Assembly: GCA_903859075.1 (NCBI GenBank)
Contig: CAIOLF010000003.1
Span: 1 to 43,968 of the forward strand
From: Candidatus Buchananbacteria bacterium
GTDB taxonomy: Bacteria; Patescibacteriota; Patescibacteriia; 2-01-FULL-39-33
Direction of reading: 5' to 3'
Length of the DNA: 43,968 nucleotides
Part shown: in pieces, positions 8,325 to 28,987 of the stretch
Position numbering within the stretch: the first letter of the stretch is position 1
Layout of the letters: each line of letters begins with the position of its first letter
Notes under the pieces: model-generated
What the model was told of the DNA's origin: nothing
Databases searched by the model: none
Seen by the model: only the letters and a program-made list of their open reading frames with translations
Translations under genes and position numbers: made by a program

Positions 8325-9023
8325 TTAATTTTTATTTTTTAACTCAGTCTTGCCCTCTTTGATGGCCTCGGCAATCGTCTTGGTGATGATGTCAATTGAT
8401 TTGACGGCGTCATCATTGGCCGGGATCGGATAATCAAGCAATTCCGGATTAGTATTGGCATCGCAAAAGCCGACGATGGCGATTTTTTTCTTGCGGGCTT
8501 CGGCGATAGCGGTTTTTTCCTTTTTGGCGTCGAGGACAAAAATAGCCTCCGGCAATTTATTGACTTCGGTCAGTCCGCCGACGGTCTTCTGCAATTTTTC
8601 GATTTCTTTGCCAAAATCCGACTGCTCCTTTTTGGTGTATTTGTGCAGAGCGCCGCTCTCCTTCTGCTCTTTGAGCGATTTGTATTTTTTGATCAATTTG
8701 CTGACGTTGATGAAGTTGGTGAAGAATCCCCCCACCCAGCGCTCGGTGACGAACGGCATGCCGCAGTCTTTGGCATATTTCTCTAATATTTTCTGGCCTT
8801 GTTTCTTTGTCCCCACAAATAAAACAAGACCGCCGCCCATAGCTATTTTTTTGACGTGGGCGGCCGCCTCTGCCAGCTTCTCTAGAGTTTTTTCCAGATC
8901 GATGATGTAGATGCCATTTCTCTCAGTAAAGAGATAGGGTTTCATCTTGGGGTGCCAGCGGCTTTTTTGGTGGCCAAAATGCACGCCGGATTGCAGCAAT
9001 TCGCTGATTGTCGGTAAAGACAT
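8325..9023 (-). CDS. rpsB: 30S ribosomal protein S2
   Basis: LLQSGVHFGHQKSRWHPKMKPYLF... is the canonical S2 N-terminus. Confidence 0.95.
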   Translation of the reverse strand: MSLPTISELLQSGVHFGHQKSRWHPKMKPYLFTERNGIYIIDLEKTLEKLAEAAAHVKKIAMGGGLVLFVGTKKQGQKILEKYAKDCGMPFVTERWVGGFFTNFINVSKLIKKYKSLKEQKESGALHKYTKKEQSDFGKEIEKLQKTVGGLTEVNKLPEAIFVLDAKKEKTAIAEARKKKIAIVGFCDANTNPELLDYPIPANDDAVKSIDIITKTIAEAIKEGKTELKNKN

Positions 9024-9121
9024 AATTTTTCCTTTCGGCCTCTACTTTTATGATCCGGCCTGTCAGGCGGGACAAGGAAAATTAAAAGTATGAGGGATAT
9101 TTATTAATTAATGCAAGATTA

Positions 9122-9150
9122 AATTTAACAAATATCTGGGCATTTGTCAA
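9122..9150 (-). promoter_or_regulatory. Candidate rpsB-tsf promoter
   Basis: Minus strand: TTGACA (9150-9145), 17 nt, TAAATT (9127-9122). Confidence 0.5.
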
Positions 9151-9173
9151 TATTTTCTGTAATCACCAGGGAA

Positions 9174-9202
9174 TTGACAAAAAAATTATTAAATGCTAGA
9201 GT
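9174..9202 (+). promoter_or_regulatory. Sigma70-type promoter driving GC-rich locus A
   Basis: TTGACA (9174-9179), 17 nt, TAGAGT (9197-9202). Back-to-back with the rpsB promoter. Confidence 0.6.
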
Positions 9203-9207
9203 TTAAG

Positions 9208-9592
9208 CCGATGTTGATGATGAAGCCCTTTAGGCGCTGCTGCGGCTAGATTTACTGGCAGCTTGTACGGCCGCGGCAGCGAGCAAGGTGTGTCATTCTT
9301 GCTCTTGGCAAGAAAGCTTGGAGACAGTTTCTCCTTCTTCTGCATGTATCCTTCTGCATGTATCATTGGCTGGGAAACCCCTCAGCCTTAGCGGATGCCA
9401 AAGCCGGCATCAGGAAACCAAAACCGGGTTTTCCAGTCCTCGCGGAGGATCGCCTCTCCACATGGGTGCTAACAACAAGATTAATTCATCTTGTCGGGCT
9501 AGGCATTCCAGGCGCCTGTACGTACGGGTGAGCCAAGCATTCATCACATCATAGGGTGCCCTGCCGCGACAGACACCCTTACCCCATAAATA
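9208..9592 (+). ncRNA. Candidate structured RNA A (about 385 nt, class unknown)
   Basis: G+C-rich island (34 G+C in 9241-9300) with no credible ORF and its own consensus promoter. Many local helices: 11 bp 9236-9246/9270-9280; 7 bp 9281-9287/9298-9304; 6 bp 9394-9399/9406-9411; 7 bp 9475-9481/9488-9494. Possible end-closing helix 9218-9224/9540-9546. No intrinsic terminator before the rpmE promoter. Confidence 0.45.
9337..9364 (+). repeat. Perfect tandem duplication, 14 nt x 2, inside locus A
   Basis: cttctgcatgtatc at 9337-9350 and again at 9351-9364. Confidence 0.9.
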
Positions 9593-9621
9593 TTGACTTT
9601 ACATATTTCTTCGCCTATAAT
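9593..9621 (+). promoter_or_regulatory. rpmE promoter
   Basis: TTGACT (9593-9598), 17 nt, TATAAT (9616-9621). Confidence 0.6.
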
Positions 9622-9646
9622 ATCTTCAGTTAGAAATAATTTTTTT

Positions 9647-9931
9647 ATGAAGAAAGACATCCATCCGCAATATTTCCCTAAAGCCAAAGTTTCCTGCGCC
9701 TGCGGCCATACTTTTATTGTCGGCTCAACGATGCCGGAAATCAGCGTGGAAATCTGTTCGGCTTGCCATCCTTTTTATACGGGCAAGCAGAAATTACTGG
9801 ATACTGCCAGACGCGTTGATAAATTTACTAAGCGTCTGGAACTAAAAACCGCCACTAGAAGCAAGAAGGTCAAAAAGGAAAAACAAAAAGAGATCAAAAA
9901 AGCCAAAACCACCAAAAAAGAAGGCAAATAA
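9647..9931 (+). CDS. rpmE: 50S ribosomal protein L31 (Zn-binding type) with Lys-rich C-terminal tail
   Basis: MKKDIHPQY..., CACGHTF...[10 protein letters not shown]. Start moved from the track start (9593, inside the promoter) to the ATG at 9647. Confidence 0.9.
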
Positions 9932-9948
9932 CTGATATTTATCAAAGG

Positions 9949-9978
9949 ACCCGCGGCTGTCTCTCCGGGTTCTTTTTG
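9949..9978 (+). terminator. Terminator after rpmE
   Basis: acccg (9949-9953) pairs with cgggt (9966-9970), followed by TCTTTTT. Confidence 0.55.
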
Positions 9979-10010: not shown

Positions 10011-11072
10011 ATGAACGAAAAATTAGAATCAATCCAGCGGCGATTTGAAGAATTGGAACGCCTCATGCAAAATGAGGCGGTAGTTTCTGATCCCCAGAGA
10101 ATAAAAGAGACCGGCCAAGAATACGAGGATTTAAAAGAAATCATCAGCGCCAAGAAAAGACTGGACAAAGTTAACTCTGATTTAATGTCTGTCCGCCAAA
10201 TGATTGCCGATAGTTCTGATGATCAGGAGCTGCAAAAAATATCTTTGGAAGAAGAACAAGAGCTGTTGCGGCAAAAGGCCGATTTGGAAAAAGAGGTAAC
10301 CTTTTTATTGGTACCAAAAGATCCCAGTGACAAACGTAATGCCATTGTTGAAATCAGGGCTGGAGCCGGTGGAGATGAGTCGGCTTTATTTGCCGCCGAA
10401 TTATTCCGGTTGTATATGCGTTATGCCGAGGGCAAGAGATGGAAAACCAAGTTGCTTTCGGAAAATCGCATCGGCATCGGCGGCTTTAAGGAAGTGATTT
10501 TTGAGATTAAGGGGCGGGACGTTTTTAGCCTAATGAAATTCGAGTCCGGCGTGCACCGCGTCCAGCGCGTGCCGGAAACAGAGAAAAAAGGCCGCGTCCA
10601 CACCTCCACGGTTACGGTGGCGGTATTGCCGGAGGCGGAGGAAGTTGATCTGGTAATTGATCCAAAAGATTTGCGAATTGATACCTTTTGCGCCGGCGGC
10701 CATGGCGGCCAGAGCGTCAATACGACTTATTCGGCAGTGCGCATCACCCACTTGCCGACCAATACGGTGGTTTCTTGCCAGGATGAGCGTTCCCAGCTGC
10801 AAAATCGTGAAAAAGCCATGCTGGTGCTGCGTTCGCGCTTGCTGGCTCTAAAAAAAGAAGAAGAAAGCAAAAAACTCGGCGCCGCTCGCCAAGCCCAGAT
10901 CGGTACCGGCGATCGCAGCGAAAAAATCCGGACTTATAATTTTCCTCAAGACCGGATTACCGATCACCGCATTAATCAGAATTTCGGCAATATCGCCAAC
11001 GTTATGGAGGGCAATATTGAGCCGATTATTGAAGCGGTCAGGGCGCAGTATATCGCTGAGAGCATTAAATAA
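10011..11072 (+). CDS. prfA: Peptide chain release factor 1
   Basis: GGQ motif ([12 protein letters not shown]), RF1-type PxT tripeptide context [17 protein letters not shown], 353 aa. Confidence 0.95.
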
Positions 11073-11196: not shown

Positions 11197-11703
11197 TCAG
11201 GAGTGGACGGCATCATCGAGGACGACGGTGTGCCGTCGAAAATCGACTCGGACGATCGCACCGGCAGGACGAATGATCGTGCTGACGGGTGGCACTGGGC
11301 TCGTCTTGCTGTTTTCGGCCGCCAAGCGATTGGCAATTTCTTCCAGCAGAGCGACTTCCCCAGTGTCATCATTTCGGCGCAGGCCAAATTGTTCAAGATT
11401 GATCTTCCGATCTTTCTCAGCCGCCAACAGTATCGGCGATAGCGCTCTGGCCCCTTCGGCAGTTGCTTCGCCTTCGCAGAGCCGATTGGCGAGCCTGGTC
11501 GCTTCTTTCTTTAGGATCATAGCCTCGTAGTGGCCGAGCCTTCGCAGAGCCTCCTCCTGGCTCCAGCCGATCTCTTTAAGTACTGGGTTATTGGCCCAGA
11601 TTTCTTGTCTCACCCTGCTTATAACCTCATGGAGGCACTCGAGCCCGAGTTCCCCCACAATTAGCTGGGCGAACAATGGTTTGAACTCGGTTCCGTGCAT
11701 CAT
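11197..11703 (-). CDS. Hypothetical protein, G+C-rich ORFan (168 aa)
   Basis: AGGAGG (complement of 11714-11719) 10 nt before the ATG. Has its own consensus promoter and terminator. Composition is plausible for a helical protein. No family recognised. Confidence 0.55.
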   Translation of the reverse strand: MMHGTEFKPLFAQLIVGELGLECLHEVISRVRQEIWANNPVLKEIGWSQEEALRRLGHYEAMILKKEATRLANRLCEGEATAEGARALSPILLAAEKDRKINLEQFGLRRNDDTGEVALLEEIANRLAAENSKTSPVPPVSTIIRPAGAIVRVDFRRHTVVLDDAVHS

Positions 11704-12755: not shown

Positions 12756-12759
12756 GCTT
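12721..12759 (-). terminator. Weak candidate terminator for locus B, overlapping the prmC stop codon
   Basis: Minus strand: aagctc, 15-nt loop, gagctt, then GTTTCTTTTTT. Only a 6-bp stem. Confidence 0.3.
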
Positions 12760-13393
12760 GATGAATTGTGTTACTCGTGGTGCTTTGGCAACCACGGTCT
12801 CTGGTCGGTTTGAACTGCGGCGCTATAGGACATCTGCTGTGTCCAAAGGTGGCCTGTACGTCTGCAGGCATGCAAGGAACACATGCTCTTTTCACAGGGT
12901 TGCAGCACACTGCTTTTCTTGATACGCCAACCGCGTCGTAAAAACCAGTACTCAAAGCCGAGTCAGCCTGTTAATTGCGCAGCGTTTAGCGCAATATTGC
13001 ATTACATAATACATAACTAACGACTTCATGTTAGGCTCCAGACGAAGCCCAGTTGTTGGTGGTCTGCGGATTGTCTCCGCGACCTATGTCCTCCGCCCTA
13101 GTTGTCGGGGGATCTGATAGAGACCATGCCGCAACCTCTCCTCCTCGGTTAAACGCTTGACACGCATTGCGCGTTTGACACAGCGCGCAATTGCCACCGC
13201 ACTTGGCAGCCAGCGAAGCGGCAAAGCCACTCCTTGCCGGGACTACCAGTAATGCACCTCTTTTTTTTCCGTACCGCTAGCACTAGCCAATGCGGGGTGA
13301 AACGGCGTCCTGATTCTGATGTAAGCTGAGCACGCAGGCCTCCTTTCCGTCGCAGCCGACGTCAGCCAAGGCGCCAATTCCCTAGAGGTAACA
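12722..13393 (-). ncRNA. Candidate large structured RNA B (about 650-670 nt, class unknown)
   Basis: G+C-rich island (35 G+C in 13141-13200) with no credible ORF in any frame. Perfect promoter just upstream on the minus strand. Many helices: 8 bp 13166-13173/13184-13191; 9 bp with one bulge 13061-13084; 7 bp 12974-12980/12989-12995; 6 bp 12775-12780/12791-12796; 5 bp 13348-13352/13357-13361. Confidence 0.45.
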
Positions 13394-13399
13394 TTAGTA

Positions 13400-13428
13400 A
13401 TTATAGGAAAACATTAAGAAAAAGTCAA
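13400..13428 (-). promoter_or_regulatory. Consensus sigma70 promoter driving locus B
   Basis: Minus strand: TTGACT (13428-13423), 17 nt, TATAAT (13405-13400). Confidence 0.65.
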
Positions 13429-13457
13429 TGTCTCTTGTCAATAGTTAAAAAATCATT

Positions 13458-13488
13458 AAAAAAACCCCGATTTTAAACGGGGCTTTTT
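13458..13488. terminator. Bidirectional terminator after rplY
   Basis: aaaaaaa-ccccg-attttaaa-cgggg-cttttt. Confidence 0.7.
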
Positions 13489-13501
13489 CATAGTATGAAG
13501 G

Positions 13502-28678: not shown

Positions 28679-28729
28679 AAAAAATTAAGTAATTAAGTGA
28701 TTAAGGAATCAATAATTAATGAACGATGA

Positions 28730-28984
28730 TTATTCGCCTTCGATTTCCTTTAAAACCCAGCTGTCGCCATGGGATTTGTCAATAATTATTTCCAGACCGG
28801 CCGCAAGCCCGCCTTCGGCTAAAAGTTTTATATTGAATTTGAGGTTGGCCGGCAGGATTTCTTCCCCATGTTCGATGATTGACCCGAGCTCGATGACGGC
28901 TTTGGTCACTTTCTGCAGGTTGTTCTTGACGGCATAATCCATGATGGTCTTATAAATCGTATCCGCTAGATGGAAATCGTGCAT
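28730..28984 (-). CDS. HypA-like nickel metallochaperone lacking the zinc-ribbon module
   Basis: MHDFHLADTI...KVTKAVIELGSI... and the C-terminal strand VLKEIEGE parallel HypA (MHE... N-terminus). It has no CxxC...CxxC segment and is only 84 aa. Confidence 0.6.
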   Translation of the reverse strand: MHDFHLADTIYKTIMDYAVKNNLQKVTKAVIELGSIIEHGEEILPANLKFNIKLLAEGGLAAGLEIIIDKSHGDSWVLKEIEGE

Positions 28985-28987
28985 AAA

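Follow-up and report, generated by a model that had tools for sequence, protein, structure and literature searches.

The window analysed here is the whole 43,968-nucleotide (nt) stretch of contig CAIOLF010000003.1, from a Patescibacteria bacterium whose RpsB is at most 72% identical to that of any GTDB species representative; the nearest representatives by RpsB are Candidatus Buchananbacteria and unclassified Patescibacteria metagenome-assembled genomes. Within it, tsf and rpsB lie on the minus strand and are separated by a 623-nt spacer from rpmE and prfA on the plus strand, and this divergent rpsB/rpmE layout is common across Patescibacteria. We describe a 372-nt block of this spacer, located between the divergent rpsB and rpmE promoters, which on comparative grounds very probably encodes a conserved non-coding structured RNA of a new family, read from the plus strand. 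The features of the locus are as follows.

8325-9023, minus strand: rpsB, the divergent neighbour
9122-9150, minus strand: rpsB promoter (promoter scan)
9174-9202, plus strand: promoter of the RNA (P_RNA), TTGACA-17-TGcTAGAGT, with an extended -10 (promoter scan, 10 of 12)
9210-9581, plus strand: structured RNA, 372 nt, with 14 helices in three domains closed by the long-range helices P1 and P2, plus P6
9593-9621, plus strand: rpmE-proximal promoter, TTGACTTT-17-TATAAT (promoter scan, 11 of 12), not part of the RNA
9647-9931, plus strand: rpmE, the downstream gene, for ribosomal protein L31 of the Zn-ribbon type (94 amino acids [aa], PF01197)
10011-11072, plus strand: prfA, beyond rpmE

The block (9210-9581) has a G+C content of 53.5%, versus 45.2% for the whole window and 25 to 32% for the flanking spacer, and its core holds 34 G+C among the 60 positions 9241 to 9300, as counted in the initial annotation, which had proposed a structured RNA or a long rpmE leader at this site.

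Comparative evidence for a conserved fold

Homologues of the block were reached in closer relatives by way of their L31 homologues and the contigs that carry these, and comprise two full-length copies (loci L165 and L166), one 3' half (L162), and small fragments. The three full-length RNAs, including that of the window, share 62 to 72% identity, each pair showing about 60 gap columns, and the flanking proteins are 86 to 91% identical, a pattern that suggests fast sequence change under structural constraint. From a MAFFT alignment of these three sequences, made on sequence only, RNAalifold derived 103 pairs in 14 helices. More specifically, 92.5% of the alignment cells form a standard pair (85.8 ± 1.0% with shuffled partners, 40 to 45% with slid partners), 29 of the 103 pairs are changed on both sides (11.3 ± 2.5 shuffled, 3 to 7 slid), and the covariation score is 0.414 (0.248 ± 0.025 shuffled, 0.10 to 0.16 slid). 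The controls consisted of 500 partner shuffles, none of which was as high as the observed value for any of these measures, and of partners slid by 1 to 3 columns. The alignment and covariation analysis that the initial annotation had recommended therefore yields double changes above the controls, and the homologues keep the fold. Pairs kept by compensatory substitutions above controls are what a conserved structured RNA in general displays, and they were found here on three to four distinct sequences.

Consistently, independent minimum free energy (MFE) folds of L165 and L166 yield the same helices, and L162, which took no part in deriving the fold, fits P4, P4a, and P6. Because 33 cells hold G·U and only 5 hold A·C, the folded strand is taken to be the plus strand; pairing is 92.5% on the plus strand versus 83.4% on the minus strand. 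The idea of a structured RNA has thus gained from a fold kept with compensatory changes, the lack of a shared open reading frame (ORF), a kept promoter, and the fit of G·U pairs to the strand. Judged from a single sequence, the fold is only modestly unusual: the MFE z-score of the block is -3.0 on the plus strand and -2.4 on the minus strand, against a window background with a mean of -0.72 and a standard deviation of 1.23, in which 7 of 110 windows (6%) lie at -3 or below, and the hairpin density of the block falls in the top 5 to 11% of windows. It is the comparative evidence, not the folding energy, that lifts the finding above chance.

The block carries no recognizable protein gene. The initial annotation had described an 88-aa ORF as the only one; this GTG-initiated frame is present at 9288-9554, but it is the sole ORF only at a threshold of at least 60 aa, and several of 32 to 57 aa exist. 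Codon-usage scores in all six frames of the block range from -0.18 to -0.43, versus +0.33 ± 0.12 in real genes. A Pfam search with all open stretches of the block and a six-frame query against 5.8 billion proteins returned no match, so that no gene remnant was revealed, and no ORF is common to the homologues, as no frame is shared by the window, L165, and L166. An exhaustive phmmer search with a 106-codon open frame gave two matches, both to internal-repeat proteins; because the scores sum over 4 to 9 stretches of these repeat proteins, we regard them as artefacts. In L165, the public gene call places a 110-aa ORF without a Pfam domain over the RNA homologue (L165:1998-2330), and since its frame is conserved in neither the window nor L166, it is best taken as a spurious protein prediction.

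These data bear on the reading that the block is non-functional, either a decaying gene remnant or neutral spacer that happens to fold. Its folding z-score is not exceptional for the genome, close relatives live without the RNA, and the plus strand has few stop codons, all of which would suit this reading; however, neutral DNA would not hold 14 helices through 29 double substitutions at 62% identity, there is neither a conserved frame nor a protein relative among the 5.8 billion sequences, and G+C is held at 53% where spacers have 25 to 32%. We consider it highly improbable, and covariation has already largely refuted it.

The anatomy of the RNA, all on the plus strand, is given below.

9210-9222, plus strand: 5' strand of P1, GAUGUUGAUGAUG, pairing with 9538-9550 (CAUUCAUCACAUC) and joining the ends of the RNA
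9225-9235, plus strand: small hairpin that precedes Pa
9235-9251 with 9265-9281, plus strand: Pa, a long hairpin with a variable loop (helix 3)
9282-9303, plus strand: Pb, a hairpin (9282-9286 with 9299-9303; 8 bp in the window) with 2 double changes (helix 4)
9304-9309, plus strand: 5' strand of P2, CUUGGC, pairing over a distance of more than 220 nt with GCCAAG at 9532-9537 (helix 5)
9319-9337, plus strand: Pc, a hairpin followed by the conserved UUCUUCUG (helix 6), flagged as a weak terminator-like site
9338-9389, plus strand: variable-length region, absent in L166 and different in L165, with a hairpin at 9368-9387 in the window
9391-9453, plus strand: four-way junction of P3 (helices 7-10), with P3 at 9391-9393 with 9451-9453, P3a at 9394-9399 with 9406-9411, P3b at 9413-9419 with 9427-9433, and P3c at 9436-9441 with 9445-9450
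9456-9510, plus strand: conserved joiner CUCCRYA, then P4 (9463-9473 with 9498-9510) enclosing P4a (9475-9484 with 9485-9494) (helices 11-12)
9512-9529, plus strand: P5, a hairpin of variable length with 4 double changes, longer in L165 and L162, register uncertain (helix 13)
9532-9537 and 9538-9550, plus strand: 3' strands of P2 and P1
9552-9581, plus strand: P6, a G+C-rich hairpin, (G)AGGGUGYCCUG-CCGCGA-CAGACACCCU (helix 14)

P1 (helices 1 and 2) comprises 12 pairs with 92 to 100% of cells paired and one double change. The initial annotation had foreseen such an end-joining helix, which is real, with a register slightly different from the one it gave (9210-9222/9538-9550 instead of 9218-9224/9540-9546). 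Likewise, its 11-bp helix at 9236-9246/9270-9280 is present but forms part of Pa, a hairpin of 15 pairs, and the several short hairpins that it listed were found in the sequence. Seven of the 15 Pa pairs show double changes, and the stem sequence is almost wholly different in L165 and L166, with the hairpin kept; in a fragment from a Logan contig, the single stem change turns the G·U at 9242 into G-C, and 6 of the 12 loop bases differ. P2 is paired in 100% of cells, L166 having UUUGAC/GUCAAA by two compensatory double changes. In the P3 junction, which is part of covariance model R1 (alignment A10), 94 to 100% of cells are paired, 6 pairs carry double changes, and the loop sequences ARAGCC and AAWACCR are conserved. 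P4 has a near-invariant 3' strand, GGCUAGGCAUYCCAGG. The AGCC of the P3a loop is complementary to GGCU of GGGCUAGG, which points to a possible tertiary contact between loop and joiner; both are invariant, so covariation is uninformative here. In P6, 10 of 12 pairs never vary, and the hairpin is nearly identical in five lineages (the window, L166, L165, L162, and L170), indicating conservation in sequence and not merely in structure.

Inside the variable region, the window lineage alone carries a perfect 14-nt tandem duplication (CTTCTGCATGTATC twice, 9337-9364), a recent slippage event tolerated by the fold.

Distribution, inheritance and loss

The lineages with and without the RNA are listed here, with identities to the window.

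L166-L169 (one species): L31 82% identical, spacer of 593 nt, full RNA
L165: L31 87%, spacer of 658 nt, full RNA
L162: L31 94%, contig starting inside the RNA, 3' 150 nt of the RNA present
L170 and L171: L31 95% and 84%, upstream spacer outside the contigs, last hairpin only
L163/L164: L31 90%, spacer of 301 nt, RNA absent
L181/L182: RpsB 89%, spacer of 264 nt, RNA absent

One further contig, L183, was uninformative. At 161 rpsB loci of distant relatives (GTDB genomes and Joint Genome Institute metagenomes; RpsB identity of at most 72%), blastn, nhmmer, and tblastx detected no homologue, and phage, plasmid, and IMG/VR collections gave nothing beyond chance 16-mer matches. A profile hidden Markov model and R1, which models the P3-P4 core, found only the known members in the window and 180 loci (~930 kb), and R1 found no paralogue in the window, including the gap at 12756-13400. 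On a Logan contig from a close relative, 126 nt replace 9157-9641, and a second contig of the same run carries a diverged version of the block's first 30 nt. The empty distant loci and the RNA-less Logan contig had at first led us to read the block as an orphan insertion, a reading that the closer relatives overturned.

A neighbour-joining tree of RpsB, L31, and PrfA together has the topology ((L163,(L181,window)),(L165,L166)). Since carriers sit in both subclades, the RNA was present in the common ancestor and was lost twice, and vertical inheritance with two separate deletions is the simplest history. The RNA was deleted at the locus in L163/L164 and L181/L182, as seen on short contigs that cover the locus only. 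In L181, the promoter and a decayed 5' strand of P1 (CCTGATACTGATAATTCAGC) are fused straight to the rpmE -35 box; in L163 the deletion is a different one, and roughly 60 nt of unrelated or decayed sequence stand there.

Across Patescibacteria, the rpsB/rpmE spacer is mostly 207 to 350 nt long and A+T-rich, with unrelated ORFs in some lineages. It is a lineage-specific insertion hot spot ranging from 207 to 2516 nt, and the inserts in relatives include L001:1521-3000 (a 318-aa ORF), L002:2305-3000 (a 103-aa ORF), and L174:1472-2220, among others.

The block might on this account be an RNA left behind or carried along by a selfish or mobile element, such as an ORF-less intron-like RNA or a transposon-associated guide RNA, lodged in a spacer hot spot. 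Its patchy presence among species with 86 to 91% protein identity, the spread of the spacer from 207 to 2516 nt with unrelated ORFs in other lineages, and a block G+C well above that of the surrounding spacer would agree with such an origin. Against it, carriers occur in both subclades and L181 keeps the decayed P1 5' strand at the edge of its deletion; no phage, plasmid, or viral contig matches; and the block is single copy, with no second copy in the 44-kb window and an assembly depth of 3.3 to 4.4, versus 4.9 in the flanks. Neither terminal inverted repeats nor a target duplication was found, no transposase, reverse transcriptase, or nuclease gene lies adjacent, and no intron or guide-RNA model of Rfam matches. 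On the same grounds we rejected a remnant of a miniature inverted-repeat transposable element or insertion sequence: no second copy occurs in the window or the fetched loci, no target-site duplication is seen, and the one inverted repeat that spans the block from end to end belongs to helix P1, whose strands covary as RNA. We therefore rate a mobile origin as improbable.

Transcription signals, the relation to rpmE and neighbouring features

The promoter that the initial annotation had read as TTGACA-17-TAGAGT at 9174-9202 is present, with 10 of 12 matches and the TG of an extended -10 in the promoter scan. Transcription is predicted to start at about 9207-9210, at the foot of helix P1, and the fold begins within a few bases of this predicted +1. 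P_RNA is kept in the carriers and in L163 (alignment A3: L166, L165, and L163), with an invariant -35 and an extended -10 of TGnTAGAGT, TAGAAT, or TAAGTT, and is decayed in L181, where its spacer is now 19 nt. It is absent from the more distant relatives L082, L004, L005, and L083, and because relatives outside the clade lack it, we assign it to the RNA gene. P_RNA and the rpsB promoter, the latter conserved in alignment A3, stand back to back, their -35 boxes 23 nt apart. The promoter at 9593-9621 is likewise present as TTGACT-17-TATAAT (11 of 12); as it is conserved in RNA-less relatives and in distant Patescibacteria, it is evidently ancestral.

No intrinsic terminator precedes the rpmE promoter, in agreement with the initial annotation: the scan gives only a weak site at 9320-9334, with a 5-bp stem. 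The 3' tail of P6 is C/U-rich and has no U-run in any of the five lineages, as read from their sequences, and P6 ends about 12 to 15 nt before the rpmE -35 box. Canonical terminators of the hairpin and U-run type are used elsewhere here, after rpmE and at 13457-13490, so that P6, having no U-run, is probably an inefficient terminator. Transcripts from P_RNA probably run on into rpmE.

Such read-through is central to the main rival explanation, possible but in our estimate doubtful, in which the RNA is a giant cis-acting leader of rpmE and the transcript from the distal promoter carries the fold together with rpmE. The fold or P6 would sense L31 (autoregulation), a metabolite, or an ion and adjust read-through into, or translation of, rpmE, with the proximal promoter giving unregulated basal expression; P6 could be the L31 operator, or the whole fold the sensor. 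In every carrier the RNA lies on the rpmE strand immediately upstream of the gene, with no U-run terminator between the two, and rpmE, closely followed by a terminator, makes up a short transcription unit by itself. A P1-closed fold followed by a hairpin has the layout of a riboswitch aptamer with its expression platform, and P6 is conserved by sequence and not by covariation, as a protein operator would be. In this it resembles the published L31 leaders, which comprise five Rfam motifs, each a single hairpin (Eckert & Weinberg 2020, PMC7247131), on the sense strand directly upstream of rpmE; E. coli rpmE, too, has two promoter regions (Aseev et al. 2020, PMC7297116).

The same systems also reveal where the leader reading falters. 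In E. coli the operator sits in the shorter transcript (PMC7297116), and the known motifs lie inside the 5' untranslated region (UTR) of that shorter transcript, whereas the present 372-nt, 14-helix fold is upstream of the proximal promoter (9593-9621) and would be in the 5' UTR only of a putative long transcript from 9174-9202. Since a promoter with 11 of 12 matches, kept well outside the clade too, separates the RNA from rpmE, most rpmE mRNA would be made without the element. Moreover, 370 nt and 14 helices far exceed any ribosomal-protein leader or riboswitch aptamer; no outstanding pairing links the RNA with the start of rpmE, the only match being a short polypyrimidine/polypurine one; two lineages dropped the RNA and kept rpmE with both promoters; and no L31-leader, T-box, or riboswitch model of Rfam matches.

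We favour the reading that 9174-9581 is the gene for an autonomous accessory RNA, a structured molecule of about 370 nt belonging to a genus-level, Buchananbacteria-like clade, and give it a probability of roughly 55%. It is preferred over the leader because the RNA has a dedicated promoter, because its self-contained fold starts at +1 and is closed by its own ends, because its size, junction-rich architecture, and invariant loops are unlike those of any leader, and because the conserved rpmE promoter lies downstream, so that most rpmE mRNA would bypass the RNA. In the mechanism we propose, P_RNA would drive the RNA, whose fold would be closed by P1 and P2. The RNA would act as a folded molecule, perhaps as a protein-binding scaffold or in another function that needs a complex fold, as its size, multiway junctions, and invariant loops suggest. 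Given the conserved, near-consensus rpmE promoter downstream of it, it would not be mainly a regulator of rpmE; transcription would read through into rpmE, and the mature RNA would be cut out or protected at P6.

Several observations weigh against an autonomous RNA. Two sister lineages (L163/L164 and L181/L182) lost it at the locus, so that over short evolutionary times it can be dispensed with or replaced. No canonical terminator ends it although the genome has such terminators, and for this reason a discrete RNA needs processing or a non-canonical stop at P6. A search for RNA runs containing the block sequence found none, and no member occurs outside the clade in the ~930 kb of relatives' loci or in the phage, plasmid, and viral collections. 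The RNA adjoins rpmE in every carrier, on its upstream side and in the same orientation, an arrangement that a leader would show as well. Finally, the comparison rests on three full-length distinct sequences, one half, and fragments, and those same three served to derive the structure, so that its statistics carry no significance of the R-scape type.

Other features of the neighbourhood are recorded here in their own right. The rpmE gene lacks a Shine-Dalgarno sequence: the proximal promoter gives it only an A/U-rich leader of some 20 nt (9622-9650), whereas rpsB shows a clear AGGA. A hairpin with a U-run just 3' of rpmE (9940-9975) indicates that rpmE is a one-gene transcription unit, and prfA has its own promoter, TGcTATAAT. 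The 5' UTR of rpsB (9024-9115, minus strand) is a leader kept far beyond the genus (L001, L002, L004, L005, L082, and L083). It has a helix CCUCAUAC-UUU / AAAAG-UAGAGG, with a few compensatory changes, that encloses a variable hairpin, and an invariant UUUCCUUG complementary to the Shine-Dalgarno region GAAAGGAAAA; it is a candidate S2 autoregulatory leader and has no Rfam match. The lowest folding z-score of the window scan, -5.5, falls at 8801-9188 on the minus strand.

Farther downstream, between prmC and the L25/Ctc gene, lies another G+C-rich gap without ORFs (12756-13400, about 640 nt), with an 11 of 12 minus-strand promoter (13428-13400) and a bidirectional terminator (13457-13490). No Rfam match was found inside it at E ≤ 1, and blastn and covariance model R1 show it to be unrelated to the rpsB/rpmE RNA; it may be another RNA, and is probably the other candidate of the initial annotation. 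A 168-aa ORF without a Pfam domain (11197-11703, minus strand) lies between prfA and prmC, its position kept in L166/L167 (175 aa), and another stretch between genes, some 300 nt at 28685-28987, contains no long ORF.

Known RNA systems and significance

The RNA is a bacterial structured RNA beside a ribosomal-protein gene, and fits no known family among those tested. When the whole window was scanned against the 4227 families of Rfam 15 at the gathering score, no family matched anywhere in it. Even at E ≤ 10, neither the block nor its homologues L165 and L166 matched a model on either strand, and ARAGORN found no tRNA or transfer-messenger RNA (tmRNA) in the window. The families that the initial annotation had named for checking (RNase P, tmRNA, signal recognition particle [SRP], 6S, and L31 leaders) are thereby covered, with no match at E ≤ 10, and its remark that the universal motifs of RNase P RNA and tmRNA are absent agrees with Rfam and ARAGORN.

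Individual candidates were rejected as follows. RNase P RNA (RF00010/RF00011) gave no model match, and its motifs GGAAAGUCC and ACAGAA..GGCUUA are absent from the sequence; the loose minus-strand resemblances to it are due to chance. For tmRNA (RF00023) there was no Rfam or ARAGORN match, and the tRNA-like end with a tag ORF is absent. RNase P RNA and tmRNA resemble the present RNA in length, in a dedicated promoter, and in ends paired in a closing helix; they differ in helix order, the present RNA having three hairpins between P1 and P2, and sister species deleted the present RNA, which would be unlikely for an essential one. No covariance model for 6S, SRP, or other housekeeping RNAs matched, and none of the L31 leader models (L31-Actinobacteria, -Coriobacteria, -Corynebacteriaceae, -Firmicutes, and -Gammaproteobacteria) did so at E ≤ 10.

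Neither a known riboswitch aptamer nor a T-box model of Rfam matched; the AGGGUG..CCGCG of P6 resembles the T-box sequence, a likeness supported by no model. Riboswitches share with the RNA a P1-closed fold from the transcription start and a stable hairpin directly 3' of P1, upstream of a gene. The present RNA, however, is about twice the size of the largest aptamers, its hairpin has no U-run and does not overlap the ribosome-binding site, a strong promoter stands between RNA and gene, and the gene context suggests no ligand. P6 was also rejected as a riboswitch expression platform, since it has no U-run and some 65 nt, with a promoter among them, separate it from the start of rpmE.

A precedent for a stable non-coding RNA as the 5' part of a transcript into a protein gene is E. 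coli 6S RNA (ssrS), which is co-transcribed with the downstream ygfA and released by processing. 6S RNA itself is a rod of about 180 nt with a central bubble, and the present RNA has no structural or covariance-model similarity to it. Comparable, too, are the large orphan RNAs OLE, ROOL, GOLLD, HEARO, and the raiA motif, which exceed 300 nt, have multi-junction folds backed by covariation, form G+C-rich islands in A+T-rich spacers, and have functions not evident from context. The present RNA is like them in size, multi-junction fold, and G+C-rich setting, and unlike them in that no model matches, it is known from one genus-level clade, and it has no association with a prophage, a tRNA gene, or IscB. 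Our literature searches turned up no comparable RNA from the candidate phyla radiation.

Bacterial RNAs above 300 nt with multi-junction folds are rare, and historically they have proved to be ribozymes, the cores of ribonucleoproteins, or unusual machines of another kind. A tentative extension, to which we attach rather low confidence, is that the RNA founds a new, Patescibacteria-specific class of large bacterial RNAs with complex folds, and is a stand-alone ribonucleoprotein scaffold or ribozyme and not a gene-control element. P6 and the invariant loops would then be the functional sites, and divergent members may occur elsewhere in the candidate phyla radiation.

Gene callers have already placed a spurious 110-aa ORF on the RNA in one relative, and if the leader reading were true, the element would be by far the largest ribosomal-protein leader known. 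It is worth following for its size, for the strength of covariation obtained from few sequences, and for the contrast of presence and absence, the narrow known distribution limiting the claim. A large part of bacterial diversity belongs to the Patescibacteria, whose genomes are tiny and leave little DNA to spare, and whose non-coding RNAs have hardly been explored. It is unlikely that an RNA of 370 nt would persist idly in so small a genome, next to core genes of translation, and functional studies could draw on a natural experiment, the sister species with and without the RNA.

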